From Candidatus Tayloriibacteriota bacterium (GTDB taxonomy: Bacteria; Patescibacteriota; Minisyncoccia; Phycocordibacterales; CAIRYW01), in the NCBI GenBank assembly GCA_028286725.1, contig JAQBQZ010000014.1:5051-69050 (forward strand): DNA of 64,000 nt. Reading direction: 5' to 3'. Under the pieces are notes generated by a model. The model did not search any database. It was given only the letters and a program-made list of their open reading frames with translations, and was not told the origin of the DNA. The translations under genes were made by a program, and so were the position numbers. Shown one piece after another: positions 24,939 through 64,000 of this stretch. Numbering within the stretch: the stretch's first letter is position 1; each line of letters starts with the position of its first letter.

Positions 24939-27128
24939 TTGCGCGAAGAATTTCTTTACAAAATATTTTTAATAATTTATATGGCAGAAAAAATAAAATC
25001 AATAAAAGTGCATGCGGTCGAAAAGGTAGAAGAGGAAACGGTGATTCCACAGGTGAAAGAAAAAAAGAAATTTAATTTTGAGAATCTTTCGTTTTGGACG
25101 ATTGGAGCTGTGGTATTTTTGATGCCGATTTTTTTTCTCCCTGTCTCAATAATAGGATCTTCTCAGGCAAAGCTTACACTCCTTGCACTAGGCACGCTTT
25201 TGGCATTTTGCTTTTTGCTTATAGACAGAATGAAGAAAGGGGTTGTGACTTTAACTCTCAATCCTATTTATATTACAGCAAGCATACTTTCTGTTGTTTA
25301 TTTTGTTTCTAGCTGGGTGGGCATTTCTCAATATAAATCTCTCATTGGCAGTATGACGGAACAAGATACATTCATTACGATATTTATTGGATTTCTTTTT
25401 ATGTTTCTTTTGTCTCGCCTCGCTAAGACTTCAAAGAAGATATTTACAATCCTCTCTCTTCTTTTTGGTTCTATTGTGGTTGCGATGTTTTTCCAGATTG
25501 CTCGAATTATTGTTGGCAATCCTCTGTCGCTTAGCGTTCTTACTTCGCCATCAATAACTCTCGTAGGAAGCTGGGGTGATATTACAATACTCTCACTTTT
25601 ACTCCTCGCATCACTGGTGATTATTCTTGAAACAGTCAAACTCAAAAGATGGGTTGCATTGTCTTTAGGACTGCTTCTCATTGTTCCGTTTTTGTTTGTA
25701 GTGCTTTCTGGACTTTCTTTTGACTTTTATTTCTTCGGCATCGGCTTACTTCTTCTTATTGCTATTGCATCTATTGTTATCTTTGCGTATCTTTTCTCTC
25801 TCAGACGCAGTCATAAGGCTATCGAGAATGCAGAGGAGGTTGTCATAAAAAAGAAATCAAAAGTATCCGCATCACTTGTTCTGCTCCTCATTTCTATTTT
25901 GCTTGTACTCTTTGGTACGCAGGTTAATTCGTATCTTTCAAAGATTACCGGTGTGACATATGTAGAAGGACGACCAAATTGGCAGGCAACACTTGATGTA
26001 TCATCAAAAGTTCTCGCACAAAAGCCATTCTTTGGATCAGGGCCGAATACATTTGATGTTGAGTGGGATCTCAATCGCGCTCAAGAAGTCAACAATTATA
26101 TTTTCTGGAATAACGAATATAACTTCGGTGTAGGATTTGTACCGACATCACTTACGACCGTGGGAATTGTGGGATTCCTTTTCTGGCTTCTGTTTTATAT
26201 TTTTGTTTTGATCTTGGCATCGAAGACATTGTTCGGACTTGGCAAAAGAGAAGAGGGGACAATCATGAGTATTATCATTTCTGTAGGTGCTATATTGTCA
26301 TCTCTTGTTCTCATGTTCTACGCGCCAGGAATAGTCGTCGTGTTTGTAAACGGCGTATTAATCGCACTTCTTGTAGCACTCAATGCAGGAAGCTTCAAAG
26401 TTCGGAATATTAATTTCCACGGAAAACAGTGGCACAATTTTGTTTCAACTATCGGATTCGTGATTCTTCTTATTGTCACTATTTATGTTATGTATATTGT
26501 GGCATTCAAGGCTCTTGCGAATGCGTACTACAGAGCTGCAATCCTCAGCAGTGATGTTGACTCAGCGCTTGGACTTATTCAGAAATCTGTAATTTTGGAT
26601 CCGACACAGTCTCTCTATTACCAGACAGAAGCTCAAGTGTATGCGGCAAAAGTTTCTTCGGCTCTATCCCTTTCTGATGCTGACCTTGCAAACAAAAAAG
26701 ATGAGATCAACAAGAGTATCGTAAGCGCGGTAAACGCTTCTGTTTATGCAGAAGGGGTTAATCCTACGGACTACAAAGCAAAGGTGATGACTGGAAAGAT
26801 TCTTGAATTCTTTGGGTCTATTGGGCTCAAGGATGCAAGTCAGGGTGCGATTCAGAAATATATTGCAGCAAGTGCTCAGGCTCCGACAAATCCACTCCCA
26901 CTTTTGTTTGCTGCTAATGTCGCACTCAATATAAATAACAAGCCTCTCGCTAAAGATTATTTAACTCGAGCTATCACACTCAAGTCTGATTACACTGATG
27001 TTCCAGAATTAGGTAAGGAAATCCAAGGTCTCGTGGATCAGCTCAATAAAGCGTCTGCTCCTGTAGTAGTTCCTGCGGCAACAAGTACATCCGCGATCAA
27101 AGAAAAGGTGAAGGAGAAAGCTAAATAA
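24939..27128 (+). CDS. Large polytopic membrane protein, O-antigen-ligase (Wzy_C)-like core, with a C-terminal soluble TPR-like region
   Basis: About 12-14 hydrophobic helices over residues 50-520, then a helical hydrophilic C-terminus. Family assignment is tentative. Confidence 0.35.
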   Translation: MREEFLYKIFLIIYMAEKIKSIKVHAVEKVEEETVIPQVKEKKKFNFENLSFWTIGAVVFLMPIFFLPVSIIGSSQAKLTLLALGTLLAFCFLLIDRMKKGVVTLTLNPIYITASILSVVYFVSSWVGISQYKSLIGSMTEQDTFITIFIGFLFMFLLSRLAKTSKKIFTILSLLFGSIVVAMFFQIARIIVGNPLSLSVLTSPSITLVGSWGDITILSLLLLASLVIILETVKLKRWVALSLGLLLIVPFLFVVLSGLSFDFYFFGIGLLLLIAIASIVIFAYLFSLRRSHKAIENAEEVVIKKKSKVSASLVLLLISILLVLFGTQVNSYLSKITGVTYVEGRPNWQATLDVSSKVLAQKPFFGSGPNTFDVEWDLNRAQEVNNYIFWNNEYNFGVGFVPTSLTTVGIVGFLFWLLFYIFVLILASKTLFGLGKREEGTIMSIIISVGAILSSLVLMFYAPGIVVVFVNGVLIALLVALNAGSFKVRNINFHGKQWHNFVSTIGFVILLIVTIYVMYIVAFKALANAYYRAAILSSDVDSALGLIQKSVILDPTQSLYYQTEAQVYAAKVSSALSLSDADLANKKDEINKSIVSAVNASVYAEGVNPTDYKAKVMTGKILEFFGSIGLKDASQGAIQKYIAASAQAPTNPLPLLFAANVALNINNKPLAKDYLTRAITLKSDYTDVPELGKEIQGLVDQLNKASAPVVVPAATSTSAIKEKVKEKAK

Positions 27129-56401: not shown

Positions 56402-57574
56402 TTAAAATTTTAGATGTCCCTCAGCTTTAATATTCCTTTGATTTATAATCTTTTTCTTTTTGTACACATTTAGATATCCTGCGATAGCAATCATGATTGC
56501 ATTGTCTGTTGAGAGTGCTTTGTCAGGGATATGAAGATTAATGTTTAGTTCATTCACCATTGCCTGAAGATTGTTTCTTAAATGTTTGTTTGCACTTACA
56601 CCACCCCCAACAATAAGAGTTTTGACTTTGAAATGTTCTATAGCTTTCTTGGTTTTGTGAATGAGCACATCAACAGCTGCATCTTCAAATTCTTTGGCGA
56701 TCTCTGTTTTGATTTGTTCTGTAATTTGAGGAATATCTCGAACCGTATAAAGTACTGCGGTTTTGAGACCGGAGAATGAGAAGTCAAAATCCTTTGTATA
56801 CATCATTGGACGAGGTAGTTTTATATCTGAAGTTTGATTTTCTTTATTTCGAATTGTTTCGGCAAGAGTTGAGATCTGTGGTCCGCCAGGGTACGGGAGT
56901 CCCAATATCCGTGCTGCCTTGTCGAATGCTTCGCCAACCGCATCATCTTTTGTTTGCCCAATGACTTTGTATTTACCCCAGTCTTTGACGAGTACCAATT
57001 CTGTGTGACCTCCGCTTACAAGAAGTGAGAGTGCAGGGAACTGTTTTTTATTGGAAATATTAAATTCCGATTTGGAAATTTGCTTTTTGTTCATGAGTAC
57101 TGAAGCAATGTGTCCCTCCATGTGATTCACACCGATCATTGGAATATCCCAAAGTTCGCTTAAAGCTTTTGCAAAACTTATTCCTACCCATAAAGCAGGT
57201 TCAAGTCCCGGACCTTTTGTAACAGCGATCAGGTCTATTTTTGGAGCTTTAATATTGAGAATATGATTTGTGATATGTTCAAGGAGTTCCGGCTCGCGGA
57301 TAAGAATTGTTTTGAGTTTATTTATTTTTTTATCATCAATTTTTGACTTTAAATATGTGAGATTTTTTGAATCTTTGAGAACTTTAATGAGAAGTGGTAT
57401 TGAATTCTTTTGGTGCTCTCTTCGAGCGAGGTTAGGGAAGACACCTCCATATTGTTCATGTAGTTTTGCTTGTGATGCCAGTGCGTCTCCTAATACTTCT
57501 ATTTTATTTTTTGAAATAGAAAGAAGGGAAATGGCTGTTTCGTCGCAAGAGGTTTCTATAGATAATATCTTCAT
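56402..57574 (-). CDS. tsaD: tRNA N6-adenosine threonylcarbamoyltransferase
   Basis: MKILSIETSCDETAISLL… Kae1/TsaD fold with metal-binding His motifs. 390 aa with insertions. Confidence 0.85.
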   Translation of the reverse strand: MKILSIETSCDETAISLLSISKNKIEVLGDALASQAKLHEQYGGVFPNLARREHQKNSIPLLIKVLKDSKNLTYLKSKIDDKKINKLKTILIREPELLEHITNHILNIKAPKIDLIAVTKGPGLEPALWVGISFAKALSELWDIPMIGVNHMEGHIASVLMNKKQISKSEFNISNKKQFPALSLLVSGGHTELVLVKDWGKYKVIGQTKDDAVGEAFDKAARILGLPYPGGPQISTLAETIRNKENQTSDIKLPRPMMYTKDFDFSFSGLKTAVLYTVRDIPQITEQIKTEIAKEFEDAAVDVLIHKTKKAIEHFKVKTLIVGGGVSANKHLRNNLQAMVNELNINLHIPDKALSTDNAIMIAIAGYLNVYKKKKIINQRNIKAEGHLKF

Positions 57575-57599
57575 ATGATAGGTGAGTTATTAGAAAAGC

Positions 57600-57850
57600 A
57601 AAAGATTGGCACTTCGTGCCCCTGCAGATTTGTACTCAAATGTGCTTTGGGGTCGCACGAAGTTTCGATTGAGAGGATTTTCATATAAAAAGTGATGGTC
57701 TACGTGGAGATTCGAAACTTACAGTTTCAGTATACCTTTTGAGTCTACGGGGAGATTCGGTCACAGATAATTTTCTGGTGAAAATTTCTGCGACCCCGAC
57801 TCCTCCGCCTTCGCGGAGTCCGTCTTTCGACTCATTTTTTAAAGCAATCC
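57600..57850. other. GC-rich non-coding stretch with direct repeats and long-range complementarity (decayed mobile DNA or structured RNA)
   Basis: Two about 20-nt direct repeats gtctacgNggagattcg (about 57698 and 57751). ggggtcgca (about 57649-57657) is complementary to tgcgacccc (about 57790-57798). Small hairpins ggcac-ttc-gtgcc and ctccgc-cttc-gcggag. No ORF above 30 aa. Confidence 0.3.
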
Positions 57851-58048
57851 CATTGCTTTAAAAATTCAAAATATCTTCGATATTTATGAGCCCATTGTAC
57901 CTTGAATGGAACACAGTAGAAAGCACGGTTTTAGAGTGGAAACAGGCTTTTGAACTTATGGGACGACAATGGATCGTTGCCTGATTCCTTTAAAACAAAG
58001 CCATTTTTGCGATATGCCGACTCGGCATCATTACCTCTCTGGGTATAG

Positions 58049-58492
58049 AACTCTATCATTATCAATGTATGTAAGGAAGTAGAGCACGGCATCCGTTTTA
58101 TTTACGCAGACAGCGCCGGAAAGTTTGAAAACATCGCACTGCAGAATGCTCTCAGCTCTGCAAACGATGGCAGAGGCGTTCCTTGCAAAGTGATCGAGGT
58201 AGTTTTCTCAAAAGAGAAAGACGAAATGGTGGGCAATTTGCGAGCTCACTTCGAGCAAGGGAAGATAAAGCTACCAAAGAAATATCGCGATGCCTTCTAC
58301 CAGTTTAAAAACTATCGATACCAAGAGGGCACCGACAAGCCAGTGAAGAAAGACGACCACATCCCCGACTCGACAATGTGCGCACTCCAGCACTTCAAAC
58401 TCGGACAGGTGAAATTAATCAGAACAGTGATTCACTTTCACCATTGGAGTTTTTGTAGCTTTTTATTGATATATTCTTTATTTGCAAGGTAA
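58049..58492 (+). pseudogene. Remnant of a phage terminase large subunit (C-terminal nuclease domain only)
   Basis: Open frame after a stop at 58046-58048 reads …GIRFIYADSAGKFENIALQNA…VIEVVFSKEKDEMVGNLRAHFEQGKIKLPK…KDDHIPDSTMCALQHF. The N-terminal ATPase domain is absent. Visibly GC-richer than its surroundings. Confidence 0.5.
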
Positions 58493-58555
58493 AAAGGGTG
58501 TTTTGCCATCAAACCCTATGGTGATTAACCGTGATTTTAAAGGGTGTATGGCAGT

Positions 58556-59227
58556 TCAAAAACTATCTTGTATGTTGGCGATCGCTGTCCGTCTTACGAT
58601 ATCCCGGAGTTCTTCATAAGTAAGTGAAATATCTAGAGATATCCTTCTTTTCTTACCTTTCTTGCCAAGACTGCTCGATGTGATAAATCCCCAGTCTGTA
58701 TACCCAGCACGTTTAATTTTATCTGCCTCATTAGGCAGGGAAAAACTATAATAATCCTCGCCGTGGACCGCTTGATTTCTTATTTCATAGAGAATCCTTA
58801 AAATAGAGCTAAACCTGAGACTGTGGTGCTTTGGACTTAGCAGGGTTCTTGTAAATCCTAATAAGATTTTTTCTTTATCTTGCTCTGAGGTAAAGGCAAA
58901 GAATCTTTTTATTGCATCAAACGATCCGATCGCATTTCTTCCAGTTTTCATTTTTGTAACTGCTTCAGCCAAAGCAATTAGGAAAATTATTTTAAGTGCA
59001 GGTCTATTTTGTCTTACTAGTTCTTGATCGTCCGCAATATCCAAATACCACTGAGCACGCAAAAGCATACGCCGAGTTTTTAATTTTCTTAAACACTTTT
59101 TTATAAACTTTTTACGCTCCTCCTTATCTGCAAGCAGCGGTGTCAAAAACTGATGGAGCTCAGTGTCTTCAACAAGCGCTTGTCTGGTTGCGTCCTCAAC
59201 AGGTTTCCATATAGATGAAGTTGCCAT
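58556..59227 (-). CDS. HEPN-like (Rx4H) all-alpha protein, Abi_2 / Swt1 / DUF4145-like; candidate effector
   Basis: 223 aa with the motif LYEIRNQAVHGE (R-x4-H, with Asn after Arg) in a predicted helical context. Starts 14 nt downstream of the 697-aa gene on the same strand. Confidence 0.5.
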   Translation of the reverse strand: MATSSIWKPVEDATRQALVEDTELHQFLTPLLADKEERKKFIKKCLRKLKTRRMLLRAQWYLDIADDQELVRQNRPALKIIFLIALAEAVTKMKTGRNAIGSFDAIKRFFAFTSEQDKEKILLGFTRTLLSPKHHSLRFSSILRILYEIRNQAVHGEDYYSFSLPNEADKIKRAGYTDWGFITSSSLGKKGKKRRISLDISLTYEELRDIVRRTAIANIQDSF

Positions 59228-59241
59228 GTGTTTACAATAAA

Positions 59242-61335
59242 TTATTTATTCCAATCTACAGGCTGGATATGAATATTTACACTCCTCATCTCATCATAGA
59301 GTTTTTTTAGTTCTGTTTTGACTCTTTCTTTATCCTCTTCAGGAACCTGAGCGTAGCTTTCAAATATCTTAGGAATGTCCCCGATGTATGTTCCACCCAC
59401 AAGCCATATCTTTTTGAGATTATTTACAAGTTTCAGTAACCTATCAGGTTCATTTGTCAGGAGAGCAACAATTTCCTCTGTTCCATTTACCCACGCTTGG
59501 TGCCTCTCCTCCGGATGATCTTTAAGGCGTATTTTCAGAAGCTCAGCCATTTTCTCAAACAGGTCTTTTGCGTCTTCTGGAGCAATAATCGCTAATTGCT
59601 CAAAAACCAGTCCAAACATCGAGGCGATGTCAGAGTCATAGCCGTTCGCCCAAAACAACAAAACATACTCTCGTATCTGATCGTAGGGCAACATCTTTTC
59701 TTCTAGCATTTTCCAAAAATGCCACGTAAGCGAAGACTTCAGGGCTGGTTTCCCATTAGCTATTTGATCTTTTAATATAGCTTCAAAAACTCTTGGGTTA
59801 AAAGTTCCCATTCGGGGAAAGTCATTCTTTCGAAATAATGCGAAGTATGGAATAAGTGCAGCTAGATCGTGTAAGACATCATCATGCTCGGTAGCAATGC
59901 AGGCATGTAATACCTCTTCCGCTTCTGCTTCTGTTAAATCTCTGAACATAAGAAAAATATTCAACAGCGCTTCTATTACGCGCGGATACTGAGCATTGTC
60001 TCGTAACATTTTTAAAGGCATCTTTCTTACAAGATCACGCTCCTCCTGTTTCCAATCAAAAGGATTTCCGTCTTGATTTTTTATGGCATCTTTTCTTTTC
60101 ACAAGTTCTATAAGGGGGTAGGTTGCTTGAGCACGAATGTAAAGATTATCTTCCAATACATAGCGTTGAATGATCTCAATTATTTCTGTGTAGTATTCTG
60201 GTTTATTCTTGGCAACTATTCGCGACATAAGCCAGCATAGATTTCCGCGCACAGTAGTTATATTCCGCACGTCTTCATTTCTTAAAGCTCGAGCATGATA
60301 ATTGTGTTCTCCCTCAGGATCGTCTGGGTCATTTGCACCAGACGGATTAGGGTTGGGGTCATTTTGAAGCATTCTTACTACCCACATTGCATCATCAATG
60401 CGCTCGTCAGGAAACTCTTGCGCAAAACGGATTAGGTTTTCTTTTGCGCCATTATCAGATAGCCAATCAAGGTTGCCAGAAGCTGTACCTACAGTTTTTA
60501 CAAAGTCGAAAGCGTTTTCGCTTTTATCATCAAGTTGGCTCCTCAGGTATCCCATAAGAAGTTTAAGGGCGTCAGGATTTTCTACATTCGCTCTTGCTTT
60601 TATTGCATCAACAACAGAACGATCAAAGATAAGTGAAAAGTTATTTTGATTTTCCTCAAAATATATCTTGTCTATATTTTCAAACTTTTCAAAATCAAAA
60701 GAAGAGAGTGCTCGAATAGCGGCATGAGTATCAACAAAGAACGCCCAATTTACTACCAATAAAACTCTTTCGTGGTCTTCCACATCAACTTGCTTATTTT
60801 TTGTAGGCAATTTATCAATGAAACTTGTTGTTGCTGCGCCCCTACTATCTACTGATCTGACACCATCACTGTACGACAGAGAAATATTTTCTAAGGATTC
60901 TATTTTATGAAACTTAAATCCCTCATGATCAAACTTTTTCACAGTCGGGTTATCTTTTATTCCTTTTTCTATAACATCTGCCATTATCACAGAATTAGCC
61001 TGCATCTGATTTTTCTTAAAAGAAAATCTGGGAGTATAAACAAGATATCCCTTCAACCCTCTCTTTTTAATTTCTTCTCTGAGTAGTCCTGTAAATTGGT
61101 GCCAAAATTGGCTCCGAGCGAGATCTTCTTCATTTTCAACAAGACGAAAAATCTCTACCGCAACTTTTTCGTTGTTTTCATTTTGAAGTTGATAGTCAAA
61201 GTTTTTTCCTGACTTTACAACAACATCTCTGTTCGTAATACCGTAAGTGAGTTGTCGATTTTGACTCAGATATTCTCTAAATCTTTCTATCGCTTCCTCT
61301 TCCCATTGATCTTTTGCCATTCCTGCATTATGCAA
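59242..61335 (-). CDS. Large uncharacterised protein (697 aa), partner of the HEPN-like gene
   Basis: N-terminal about 330-aa mixed domain, a Pro/Asn/Asp-rich linker (PNPNPSGANDPDDPEGEH), and a C-terminal about 330-aa helical-repeat region. No Walker A or other known catalytic motif. Confidence 0.5.
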   Translation of the reverse strand: MHNAGMAKDQWEEEAIERFREYLSQNRQLTYGITNRDVVVKSGKNFDYQLQNENNEKVAVEIFRLVENEEDLARSQFWHQFTGLLREEIKKRGLKGYLVYTPRFSFKKNQMQANSVIMADVIEKGIKDNPTVKKFDHEGFKFHKIESLENISLSYSDGVRSVDSRGAATTSFIDKLPTKNKQVDVEDHERVLLVVNWAFFVDTHAAIRALSSFDFEKFENIDKIYFEENQNNFSLIFDRSVVDAIKARANVENPDALKLLMGYLRSQLDDKSENAFDFVKTVGTASGNLDWLSDNGAKENLIRFAQEFPDERIDDAMWVVRMLQNDPNPNPSGANDPDDPEGEHNYHARALRNEDVRNITTVRGNLCWLMSRIVAKNKPEYYTEIIEIIQRYVLEDNLYIRAQATYPLIELVKRKDAIKNQDGNPFDWKQEERDLVRKMPLKMLRDNAQYPRVIEALLNIFLMFRDLTEAEAEEVLHACIATEHDDVLHDLAALIPYFALFRKNDFPRMGTFNPRVFEAILKDQIANGKPALKSSLTWHFWKMLEEKMLPYDQIREYVLLFWANGYDSDIASMFGLVFEQLAIIAPEDAKDLFEKMAELLKIRLKDHPEERHQAWVNGTEEIVALLTNEPDRLLKLVNNLKKIWLVGGTYIGDIPKIFESYAQVPEEDKERVKTELKKLYDEMRSVNIHIQPVDWNK

Positions 61336-61428
61336 TAAATATCTTCATATTTCTAGGAGTCATCATAGGTCTCAGTAAATGCTTTGTTTACTTCGTAATT
61401 TTCAGTTAAAAGTGCTAAACTCTTATTT

Positions 61429-63801
61429 ATGAATGAGGCATATTCACGCGTCATTATCGATAAGAAACTCAGAGAAGCTGGGTGGGATATTGAGGATCCT
61501 GCCCAAGTCATTTTTGAAGATCACGGTGATGCAGGACGTGCCGACTATGTGCTCAAGGATTCCTCTGGACATGCTATCGCCCTCATTGAGGCAAAACGCC
61601 CAGACGTAGATCCGTACAGCGCCAAGAAGCAGGCGTTTGATTATATTCAAGCTCAATATCCAAAAGTTCGCTTCATTTATCTTGCTAACGATAAGTTGGT
61701 GTATTTATGGGACCTCGATGGAGGAGGAGATGCGCAGATCGTGCCAGCTTTTTTCTCTCGTGAGGACTTAGTGCGTCGTCAGAGCTCACGAGCAATGAAT
61801 CTTGCAAAGAAGTTTAGCGAGGAGAAAGTCACAGAAGGATATTTCAGCGACGTAGCAGACAATGTCACTCTCCGACCATATCAACTCGCAGCATGGGAAT
61901 CGATAGCCGAAAATTATGATAAAGGTAAGCATGCATTCTTGCTCGAGATGGCAACGGGTACTGGCAAGACGGTTTTAGCTTCACTTATCATCTCGCGTTT
62001 TTTGCGTACCAATAATGCTCAGAATGTTTTATTTTTGGTGGACCGCAAATCTCTCGCAATTCAAACTAAAAATACTTTTGAGAAATTGCTTCGAGGTGTT
62101 TCTGCTGTCGGCACATACTGGGGATCAAACAGAAAAAACCTCACAGGTGCAAATGTTGTTGTCGCTACAATTCAGTCTTTGATGCTCCACGGTACTCGGG
62201 ACTTTTCTCCCGGCTATTTTGATTTGATTATTCACGATGAGGCGCATAGAAGCATTTACTCGCCTGAGGCACGTGCAGCTGTAGATCATTTTGTCGGAGC
62301 TACAAAGATTGGACTTACAGCAACACCTCGAGATTTCTTAAAAAATATTAGCGTAGAGAAACTTTCAGAGAAGGACCCTCGTAAATTGGAGCGCCGTGTG
62401 CAACGAGATACGTATCGATACTTCGGCTGCGATGATGGAGTGGCAACTTACCGATACACAATCCAAGATGGAGTAGCTGAAAAGTTTTTGATCCCACCGA
62501 AGTATCACAAGATGAATACTTCGGTCACTCAGCAGGCACTTTCGGAAGAAGGAATAACTGAGCTGTCGGACGTAGAACTTGAGGAGGGAGAAAGCATCAA
62601 GATCCGTGACCTTGAAAAGAAAGTACACTTTCCAGTTCGCAATCGCCGCATGATGGAGGAGTTTCTTGAGCATGCTCTTCGCACACCCGATGGAGAGATT
62701 GGTAAGACTCTTGTTTTTGCAGTATCACAGGATCATGCGCTGGCACTTGAAAAGATTTTGAATGAACTGAAACCCGAATACGGCGGCAGATTCGCTATGA
62801 CCATTACTTCACGTGTACAAGGAGCACATGACATCGCTAAAGACTTTGCTCGAGACACAAACAAACTTCCACGTATCGGTGTGACAGTAGACATGCTTGC
62901 TACAGGTTTTGATTGTCCTGAGATCTTGAACATCCTCTTTGCTCGCCCTATTTTCGATCCAATCACATATCAGCAGATCAAGGGTCGTGGTACACGGCTT
63001 TGCCCAGCGATCGGCAAGAAAGAGTTTGTTGTTTTCGACTTTTGTGGAGTCGTAGCCTACTTTGACGAAAAGTACGACTGGGAAGCTCCGGCGAGATTGG
63101 CGCGTGAGGGAGGCTTTGCCACGGGGTTGGCTAATGGAGCGATTGAAGGAGGTTCAAGCAACGTGAGCGAAAATGAGGGCATTTCTGAGCCTCGTGTGTC
63201 CCAAACCCCTGACGTAGTTCTCACCCGAGACGTTATGACCCTGCCTGAGGGCGACACTGTCGACCGAAATATGTACCGTGACGAATGGACGAAAGCGGTC
63301 CAGAGCTTCATGAGCAACAAGACCAAAATGGTATCTGGTGCACTCGAAGATCCAGAGAAAGTCGAGGAGCTCATCGAGGAAATCAACACCACCCTCCTAA
63401 ACAAACCTAGACTTTATTTCAATGAAGAAAACTTGCAGGAGTCACATCGCATTGTTGCTGGTATTCGTGAGTTCTTTTTGTCAGCGATCGGTCGGCAGTC
63501 ACTCCCGACTCGTGATGAGCAGCTAGCTTCATTCAAAGAAGCTCTCATAAACAAGTTTGCTAAGACAGACAATCCCGAGAGCTCTTTCAAAAGAGCTGTG
63601 ATGGTGGAGTTTATCGCAGACCAAGCAATTTCAAACGACAAGTTTCGAACTACGGTCCAAGCAAATCCAACTCTCGACTTCCTGCGGTGGGATGAGTTCG
63701 CTCAGGCATACTCCGTTACAGAATGGCTTGACGTATTTTCAAAAGAGGAGCTAACTGAGCTCGTGTCGGATATTTCAAACGCAAAGATTTTGACACTATA
63801 A
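61429..63801 (+). CDS. hsdR: Type I restriction enzyme R subunit-like (HsdR_N nuclease plus DEAH helicase)
   Basis: N-terminus …IIDKKLREAGWDIED…GRADYVLKDSSGHAIALIEAKRP… (HSDR_N PD-(D/E)xK). Helicase motifs MATGTGKT, LFLVDRKSLAIQ, IIHDEAHRS, TATPRD. GC-richer than flanking host genes. Confidence 0.75.
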   Translation: MNEAYSRVIIDKKLREAGWDIEDPAQVIFEDHGDAGRADYVLKDSSGHAIALIEAKRPDVDPYSAKKQAFDYIQAQYPKVRFIYLANDKLVYLWDLDGGGDAQIVPAFFSREDLVRRQSSRAMNLAKKFSEEKVTEGYFSDVADNVTLRPYQLAAWESIAENYDKGKHAFLLEMATGTGKTVLASLIISRFLRTNNAQNVLFLVDRKSLAIQTKNTFEKLLRGVSAVGTYWGSNRKNLTGANVVVATIQSLMLHGTRDFSPGYFDLIIHDEAHRSIYSPEARAAVDHFVGATKIGLTATPRDFLKNISVEKLSEKDPRKLERRVQRDTYRYFGCDDGVATYRYTIQDGVAEKFLIPPKYHKMNTSVTQQALSEEGITELSDVELEEGESIKIRDLEKKVHFPVRNRRMMEEFLEHALRTPDGEIGKTLVFAVSQDHALALEKILNELKPEYGGRFAMTITSRVQGAHDIAKDFARDTNKLPRIGVTVDMLATGFDCPEILNILFARPIFDPITYQQIKGRGTRLCPAIGKKEFVVFDFCGVVAYFDEKYDWEAPARLAREGGFATGLANGAIEGGSSNVSENEGISEPRVSQTPDVVLTRDVMTLPEGDTVDRNMYRDEWTKAVQSFMSNKTKMVSGALEDPEKVEELIEEINTTLLNKPRLYFNEENLQESHRIVAGIREFFLSAIGRQSLPTRDEQLASFKEALINKFAKTDNPESSFKRAVMVEFIADQAISNDKFRTTVQANPTLDFLRWDEFAQAYSVTEWLDVFSKEELTELVSDISNAKILTL

Positions 63802-63804
63802 ATT

Positions 63805-64000
63805 ATGGATACAATTTCACTCTACAAAAGCAGAATCGATGGATTGATGGACATACTCTTCGGAGCAGGAGTATCAAATCCTCAGACAATCATCGAGCAA
63901 CTAAACTATTTACTTTTTTTACGAGCTCTTTCAATCAAAGATGATGAGGCTGAGCTACTTGGAATTACAGATGAATCAGAAAAGATTTTTTCAGGAGAGC
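63805..64000 (+). CDS. hsdM: Type I restriction-modification methyltransferase subunit, N-terminus only (runs off the window)
   Basis: MDTISLYKSRIDGLMDILFGAGVSNPQTIIEQLNYLLFLRALSIKDDEAE resembles the HsdM N-terminal domain. Starts 4 nt after the hsdR stop. Confidence 0.5.
   Translation, partial: MDTISLYKSRIDGLMDILFGAGVSNPQTIIEQLNYLLFLRALSIKDDEAELLGITDESEKIFSGE

Follow-up and report, generated by a model that had tools for sequence, protein, structure and literature searches.

The 223-residue protein and its family

The window analysed here, a stretch of 64,000 nucleotides from Candidatus Tayloriibacteriota, carries on its minus strand an open reading frame (ORF; 58556..59227) that begins with ATG and translates into a protein of 223 amino acids (aa), itself deposited as a hypothetical protein in a metagenome-assembled genome of Candidatus Taylorbacteria. 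We consider it likely that this protein belongs to a widespread, unnamed family of small proteins within the HEPN superfamily, closest to the Abi2/Swt1 clade (AbiD/AbiF, RiboL-PSP), and that it acts as a metal-independent endoribonuclease. Residues 141-160 (SILRILYEIRNQAVHGEDYY) hold the motif RNQAVH (58763..58780, minus strand), for which the codons of R150 (58778-58780), N151 (58775-58777) and H155 (58763-58765) were read from the DNA. Translation and codon reading bear out the sequence-only reading, which had noticed an arginine and a histidine separated by four residues, with an asparagine next to the arginine. From the codons, the conservation described below and an alignment with AbiF, this Rx4H motif is proposed to supply the catalytic pair of a metal-independent ribonuclease (RNase). 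A second motif of the form Ex3K, E88-A-V-T-K92 (58952..58966, minus strand), was recognized by its conservation and by its position in a structure model, where it lies in putative helix 2.

Among the 62 non-overlapping ORFs of the window that reach 100 aa or more (18,558 residues in all), there are 13 Rx4H and two R[NDH]x3H motifs. Because such motifs recur, a lone Rx4H in one sequence is not evidence, and RNQAVH can be called non-random only through its conservation across relatives. The only other R[NDH]x3H among these ORFs, RNINFH at residue 489 of a 729-aa ORF (24939-27128, plus strand), is probably a product of chance.

A word-indexed search returned 32 close relatives, nearly all of them metagenomic and without names or Pfam domains. 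In the alignment of these sequences F82, F109, F110, R150, N151, H155 and F162 are invariant. An exhaustive profile search over 1.84 billion cluster representatives enlarged the family to 364 representatives at E ≤ 0.001 (210 at E ≤ 1e-10), which span candidate-phyla-radiation bacteria, Bacillota and pathogenic Vibrio. Conservation was assessed on an alignment of 118 representatives with 17-48% identity to the window protein. There R150 is kept in every sequence (118/118) and H155 in all but one (117/118), as is E88 (117/118), while position 92 is K or R in 97 of the 118. Position 151 is more variable (C in 65, N in 43, S in 6 and H in 4), such that the consensus of the wider family reads LYxVRCxVVHEG and the RN form marks the subfamily of the window protein, with N in 32 of 32. 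No relatives of this subfamily were found in annotated phages, plasmids or viral contigs; for the family, only Vibrio plasmids emerged, by way of the relative P0156. Architectural variants also occur in the wider family: P0123 has a multi-pass membrane N-terminus on the family domain, and three proteins (P0139, P0158 and P0171) end in a C-terminal DUF413 domain (E 4e-11 to 1.4e-8).

HEPN domains have been described as a four-helix up-down bundle of two alpha-hairpins, frequently with an insert between helices 2 and 3, an Rx4-6H motif at the end of helix 3 in which a polar residue follows the arginine, and, in helix 2, a further conserved acidic residue that usually forms part of Ex3[KR] (PMC3710099). 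An AlphaFold2 model of the 223-aa protein, built on the 32-sequence alignment, was confident (predicted local distance difference test score, pLDDT, 91.6; predicted template modelling score 0.89). It contains helices at residues 5-19, 22-28, 35-46, 49-70, 76-95, 102-110, 115-124, 139-154, 167-172 and 204-222, and a beta-hairpin with strands 181-187/194-200 between the motif and the last helix. Following the published description (PMC3710099), the first three helices would form an N-terminal extension, 49-70 and 76-95 would be putative helices 1 and 2, and 102-110 and 115-124 would be insert helices. Putative helix 3 would then be 139-154, followed by a loop comprising helix 167-172 and the hairpin, with 204-222 as putative helix 4.

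The model, read in this way, fits the HEPN description at the level of secondary structure, with the motif at the end of helix 3, E88-x3-K92 in helix 76-95, a two-helix insert and a closing helix at 204-222. Judged on the secondary structure of the model alone, R150 and N151 occupy the last turn of helix 139-154 and H155 is the first residue past its end; RNQAVH also has the polar residue after the arginine. The sequence-only reading had expected the motif at the N-terminus of helix 4, which was wrong, as the structure prediction puts it at the end of helix 3, where it has been published for HEPN. Its description of the protein as all-helical holds everywhere but for the single beta-hairpin at 181-200, and its "typical HEPN size" is a loose fit, as about 46 additional N-terminal residues (three helices) precede the putative core.

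Domain fusions and database names also connect the family with HEPN proteins. For example, in P0097 (396 aa) the family domain (residues 8-196) is followed by HEPN_AbiU2 (PF18734), which matches at 2.6e-17, above the Pfam cut-off, and has its own motif, RNKHFAH. In P0084 an N-terminal domain with RNYLAH (a weak DUF4145 match, 0.059) precedes the family domain. Dyads of HEPN domains are a recurrent architecture, for example in Swt1 (Table 1, PMC3710099). The protein WP_050921859.1, from a conjugative plasmid of Vibrio harveyi, matches the family hidden Markov model (HMM) over its full length with 206 bits, and RefSeq names it, together with relatives in V. cholerae, V. parahaemolyticus and V. 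vulnificus, "HEPN domain-containing protein". One relative from Bacillota carries the name "Abi-like protein" in UniRef. The HEPN reading of the window protein thus finds support in the conservation of R150, H155 and E88, in the modelled placement of the motif where a helix ends, in the fusions to HEPN domains, and in the defence and mobile contexts to which we now turn.

Genomic contexts and the 697-residue partner

The family gene is mobile and usually stands alone or with changing neighbours. Two loci, L001 and L002, hold it within a type I restriction-modification (R-M) operon with the order hsdM, rhuM, DUF4145, hsdS, an uncharacterized 281-aa gene, the family gene (P0008 in L001), hsdR and DUF4357. 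The operon of L001 (4726-14677) is thereby broken by four extra genes, namely RhuM, DUF4145 (itself a HEPN family), the 281-aa protein and the family member. Elsewhere the family gene lies downstream of a type III mod-res pair (L004), ahead of an uncharacterized 834-aa gene (L006), after a DUF5677 gene with a PLD gene nearby (L007), or after an uncharacterized 549-aa gene (L008). In several Patescibacteria genomes it is solitary among housekeeping genes, beside a tRNA or before a gene for an NYN-domain protein. In the chromosome of Paenibacillus sp. RUD330 (L016:289-16708) the relative is cargo of a Tn7-like element (TnsA, TnsB, TniB, TniQ/TnsD), where it shares a compact block of defence cargo with GmrSD, ScoMcrA-HNH and GIY-YIG genes. 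The Vibrio relatives are single-gene integron cassettes. At L021:2400-7500 a repeat resembling VCR/attC sites (TAACAAACGCCTCAAGAGGGACTGTCAACGCG...) follows each of five small ORFs, at intervals of 528-738 bp. Close to these cassettes are pyocin immunity genes and RadC/DUF2787 genes. An association with R-M genes was seen in only about 4 of 13 contexts of the family.

The genes adjoining the family gene in eight loci showed no homology to one another by BLASTP and no match to the family HMM. A fixed two-gene system for the whole family was rejected because these neighbours are mutually unrelated. As a separate observation, LOOT RNA (Rfam RF03000) scored above the gathering threshold in two unrelated contigs that had been sampled solely for carrying a relative of the 223-aa protein, at L004:5192-5310 (plus strand, 68.4 bits) and L006:7178-7305 (minus strand, 63.2 bits); in L006 it lies 156 bp upstream of the family gene, on the opposite strand.

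In the window, the HEPN-like gene is preceded on the same strand, at a distance of 14 bp, by an ORF listed with 697 aa (59242..61335, minus strand), with which it is probably co-transcribed. The listed TTG start of this ORF is probably wrong and the true start the ATG at 61320, because all of its three close homologues have their first residue at the equivalent of M6 (MAKEQWEE). In its C-terminal half, the 697-aa protein is helical-repeat-like. No match to it was found in Pfam, NCBIfam, PADLOC or the PHROG collection, nothing in PDB, and no plasmid or viral relatives; one homologue matches OloA at 5.9e-4. A structure model from the single sequence was unusable (pLDDT 42).

The three homologues, at 66-69% identity, lie on metagenome contigs (L052-L054), and each is tightly coupled to a downstream gene, from which it is separated by 2 or 1 bp or which it overlaps by 13 bp. 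These downstream genes differ from the family gene of the window. In L052 it encodes an HNH_5 endonuclease (2.9e-10), and in L053 and L054 a protein of 357/362 aa with the sequence LYxARSxFVHG, an Rx4HG motif, which matches the C-terminal half of the HEPN-like family weakly (i-Evalue 6e-4, HHalign 23.6) and has no Pfam match. A divergently oriented helicase-nuclease accompanies three of the four loci, HsdR-like in the window and PLD plus SNF2 in L052 and L053 (PADLOC HKD+Snf2, 4.5e-46), and integrases or recombinases flank L052-L054.

The pattern in the four loci hints at an exchange of effectors behind a conserved 697-aa subunit. It is possible, if on balance doubtful, that a two-gene module (three genes with the divergent helicase-nuclease) uses the 223-aa protein as its exchangeable nuclease effector, and that the 697-aa protein would be the conserved sensor or regulator that keeps this effector in check and sets it free. 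This alternative concerns only control and membership in a system, and it is compatible with the HEPN reading. The 14-bp gap on one strand, the different, tightly coupled partner of each close 697-aa homologue, the recurring helicase-nuclease and the flanking integrases and recombinases all speak for it. However, this support comes from four loci only, the 697-aa protein has no informative match, and the 357/362-aa proteins are only putatively HEPN. Moreover, none of the approximately 13 other contexts of the HEPN-like family holds a 697-aa homologue, and partners there are unrelated or absent. Extended to the whole pattern, the idea would be of an undescribed defence module, which we put forward only tentatively: a large conserved 697-aa subunit with interchangeable nucleases (HEPN-like RNase, ~360-aa Rx4HG protein, HNH), usually divergent to a restriction-type helicase-nuclease, with the 223-aa family as a free-standing effector cassette recruited by varied partners, R-M operons, integrons and Tn7-like elements.

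The divergent gene of the window (61429..63801, plus strand) encodes an HsdR-like helicase-nuclease of 790 aa with HSDR_N, ResIII and Helicase_C domains (Pfam ResIII 9.6e-38, HSDR_N 4.6e-06; PADLOC REase_I 2.6e-62). Against the NCBIfam model of the EcoAI-family R subunit it reached 257.7 bits, under the cut-off of 550. Neither hsdM nor hsdS was found in the 199 bp from its stop to the end of the window at 64000. Its GC content (0.44-0.50) differs from that of the two adjoining genes (0.36-0.40), and this difference suggests that it was acquired separately or more recently. In the intergenic region between it and the 697-aa gene (61336..61428), a consensus scan alone points to two promoter-like sequences on the minus strand (61390-61362 and 61355-61327), a number not above shuffle expectation.

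On the other side of the HEPN-like gene, about 220 bp downstream, a pattern scan picked up a terminator-like hairpin with a T-run (58312..58338, minus strand), a possible end of the two-gene transcript. A remnant of the 3' part of a terminase large-subunit gene lies at ~58050-58492 (plus strand), between tsaD and the HEPN-like gene, with matches to Terminase_6C (E 0.008) and to PHROG terminase families (0.012 and 0.041); the frame upstream is broken by several stops. This remnant suggests a decayed prophage or the edge of a mobile element at the border of the island. In the short spacer ahead of the remnant, directly beyond the 3' end of the HEPN-like gene, AAAGGGTGT[T/A]T[T/G]GC occurs as a 14-nt direct repeat at 58493-58506 and 58539-58552, 46 nt apart.

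Weighing the HEPN assignment

The sequence-only reading had likened the motif to those of Abi_2 and DUF4145 proteins. Pfam searches upheld membership in neither: DUF4145 (PF13643) had no match to the window protein at E ≤ 10, and Abi_2 (PF07751) came out as the best weak match, below its threshold. The family and the DUF4145 protein of L001 gave an HHalign probability of 0.2%, and HEPN_Swt1 (PF18731) matched a single family member at E 0.15, away from the motif. As the protein qualifies for neither Abi_2 nor DUF4145, we place it no more narrowly than in the HEPN superfamily, within or close to the Abi2/Swt1 clade. Among the PHROG families, phrog_2158, annotated as "abortive infection resistance protein", matches the window protein at 9.4e-5. 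When family members were scanned singly, the commonest weak match was to HEPN_RiboL-PSP (16 members, best 6.8e-4), followed by Abi_2 (14 members, best 6.5e-4), with further single weak matches to MAE_28990, Ribonuc_2-5A and Cas_Csm6_HEPN. The relative P0156 matches PADLOC AbiD (0.003), CARF_HEPN (0.0012) and NCBIfam Cas13e (0.0077), all weakly.

For a comparison of profiles, an Abi_2 alignment was built from 107 homologues of AbiF of the Clostridioides difficile phage phiC2; relatives of this AbiF from viral contigs were near-identical and of no use for alignment building. HHalign aligned the family with Abi_2 over 107 columns with a score of 27.8 and an HHalign probability of 14%, superposing R150/H155 on R202/H207 of phiC2 AbiF. 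The latter residues have been structurally aligned with R210/H215 of PbAbiF, of which the double-alanine variant is inactive (PMC12373285). None of 240 shuffled controls scored 19 or more, with a mean of 13.2 and a maximum of 18.9 for 120 column shuffles and a mean of 12.5 and a maximum of 18.3 for 120 reversed-block shuffles; the fully reversed control scored 15.3.

Several results weigh against the HEPN assignment. The Abi_2 match reaches 13.9 bits (E 0.066), where the cut-off lies at 25.6, and covers only positions 134-182 of the 184 in the profile, while NCBIfam and PADLOC-DB v2 gave zero matches for the window protein. With R, N and H masked, the family scored 13.2 against Abi_2, equal to the shuffle mean, and Abi_2 scored 21.6 against the unrelated family of the 697-aa protein. 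We therefore downgraded the HHalign score as strong evidence. As masking has this effect, every sequence link from the family to HEPN families is carried by the motif; these links place the motif in an Abi2-like local context and fall short of proving common descent of the whole domain. Foldseek with the model retrieved no similar structure from PDB, which includes AbiF 8vz6, or from BFVD. Sequence and profile searches of PDB chains with the 223-aa protein, both family alignments and the Vibrio member likewise gave nothing relevant and no link to 3jrt. The cysteine that follows the arginine in most of the wider family (65/118) is atypical, the HEPN-typical residue being N, D or H. Finally, no antitoxin or other restraint was found for the 223-aa protein.

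Some of these results could be accommodated if the protein were not an RNase at all, with R, H and E serving nucleotide or protein binding or regulation in a helical fold that mimics HEPN, or if it were an inactive HEPN adaptor. The motif-borne nature of the sequence links, the lack of a structural neighbour in the Foldseek search and the atypical cysteine would all agree with this, and non-catalytic HEPN domains exist, for example fused to nucleotidyltransferases (PMC3710099). However, such non-catalytic domains characteristically lose Rx4-6H (PMC3710099), which is kept here in 117-118 of 118 sequences, and the fusion to a second motif-bearing HEPN domain, together with the defence-island and mobile contexts, fits a toxin. 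We regard a function other than RNA cleavage as improbable.

A further alternative is that the protein is a true AbiD/AbiF (Abi_2), that is, a HEPN toxin neutralized by a structured upstream noncoding RNA in the manner of a type III toxin-antitoxin system, as has been described for AbiF (PMC12373285). Its best weak matches are indeed Abi_2 and an Abi PHROG, it is locally similar to phiC2 AbiF (IRNQAVH compared with VRNQCAH), and one relative bears the UniRef name already mentioned. Nevertheless, the match stays below the Pfam cut-off with only the last ~50 of 184 model positions aligned, the protein is 60-130 residues shorter than AbiD/F proteins, and Foldseek fails to retrieve the solved Abi family protein 8vz6. 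The gene arrangement is also unfavourable, as the upstream coding sequence ends just 14 bp before the gene. In window positions 57000-62000, Rfam detected neither the abiF motif nor any other RNA family at E ≤ 1, and it detected no related RNA at gathering score upstream of the gene in eight related loci; tandem repeats were absent upstream of the gene in standalone loci. An RNA antitoxin was rejected, as these Rfam and repeat searches gave nothing consistent, and identity with AbiD/AbiF is accordingly quite unlikely. A classical type II toxin-antitoxin pair, with the 697-aa protein as proteic antitoxin, is very improbable, for although the two genes are tightly linked and HEPN toxins with protein antitoxins exist (HEPN-MNT), the partner is very large for an antitoxin, shows no detectable nucleotidyltransferase or DNA-binding domain, occurs at none of the other loci of the family, and has homologues that pair with other nucleases elsewhere.

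Proposed mode of action and comparison with known systems

If the 223-aa protein is a HEPN RNase, its mechanism can be drawn by analogy with characterized HEPN RNases (PMC3710099) and AbiF (PMC12373285). H155 would act as general base on the 2'-OH, as in the characterized enzymes, while R150, N151 and E88 would position the substrate and stabilize the transition state. The RNA would be cut to give 2',3'-cyclic phosphate termini, probably in a composite active site to which two HEPN domains, brought together by dimerization, would contribute. The RNase may be held latent, as in AbiD/F and PrrC/RloC, and be freed when a phage attacks or when the neighbouring restriction function fails. Once free, it could cleave cellular or phage RNA and thereby arrest growth, leading to abortive infection. 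In the window, the protein may act as effector of the 697-aa protein.

The 223-aa protein is most likely one more anti-phage RNase and nothing new in kind, and would join the RNase toxins that travel with restriction systems, integron cassettes and Tn7-like elements. Some family members are already labelled as HEPN-containing in RefSeq; the present reading, if true, would put a name to a family that comprises at least 364 sequence clusters and lacks a counterpart in Pfam, NCBIfam, PADLOC or solved structures, and its profile would let defence-finding pipelines detect such genes. The concept of HEPN-based defence would be unchanged and its catalogue extended. The only part that may go beyond this is the 697-aa module, where a variable small nuclease gene behind the 697-aa protein is a concrete candidate for a new effector-swapping system.

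Several known systems can be compared with the family. HEPN_AbiU2 (PF18734) is fused C-terminally to the family domain in P0097, where it contributes its RNKHFAH motif, but it is a separate domain that the family profile does not match. RiboL-PSP-HEPN (PF18735), distantly related to AbiF and AbiD (PMC3710099), provides the commonest weak match (16 members); however, no family member reaches its threshold and no fusion to an L-PSP endoribonuclease was seen. Integron-cassette HEPN proteins include the 3jrt family and Esos, which has been described as a single-gene anti-phage cassette of the V. cholerae chromosomal integron with a HEPN-like domain only (bioRxiv 10.1101/2024.07.02.601686). The Vibrio members of the present family are likewise single-gene cassettes with VCR-like repeats, and Esos may or may not belong among them; the family has no sequence link to solved structures, including 3jrt.

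The closest parallels are found in two groups. The anticodon nucleases PrrC and RloC share the placement of a protein with a HEPN-type motif in or beside type I restriction genes, as with P0008 between hsdS and hsdR in L001 and the HsdR-like neighbour in the window, and would share the same logic of a latent RNase that backs up restriction (PMC3710099); unlike them, the family has no ABC-ATPase domain and no sequence match to them. The likeness to Abi_2 proteins (AbiD, AbiD1 and AbiF) lies in R-N-x-x-x-H after a hydrophobic helix (LTQVRNQCAH in AbiF, LYEIRNQAVH in the window) and in a comparable F/Y...(E)DK stretch that precedes the motif. Both are also single-protein, mobile and defence-associated, and sometimes sit inside R-M operons (Table 1, PMC3710099). 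In contrast to Abi_2, the window protein is much shorter, falls below the Pfam threshold and loses its similarity once the motif is masked; its gene lacks an upstream abiF RNA, most of its family has the cysteine after the arginine, and a beta-hairpin is predicted between the motif and the last helix. By analogy, then, the 223-aa protein would work most like AbiD/AbiF and the HEPN nucleases embedded in R-M systems.

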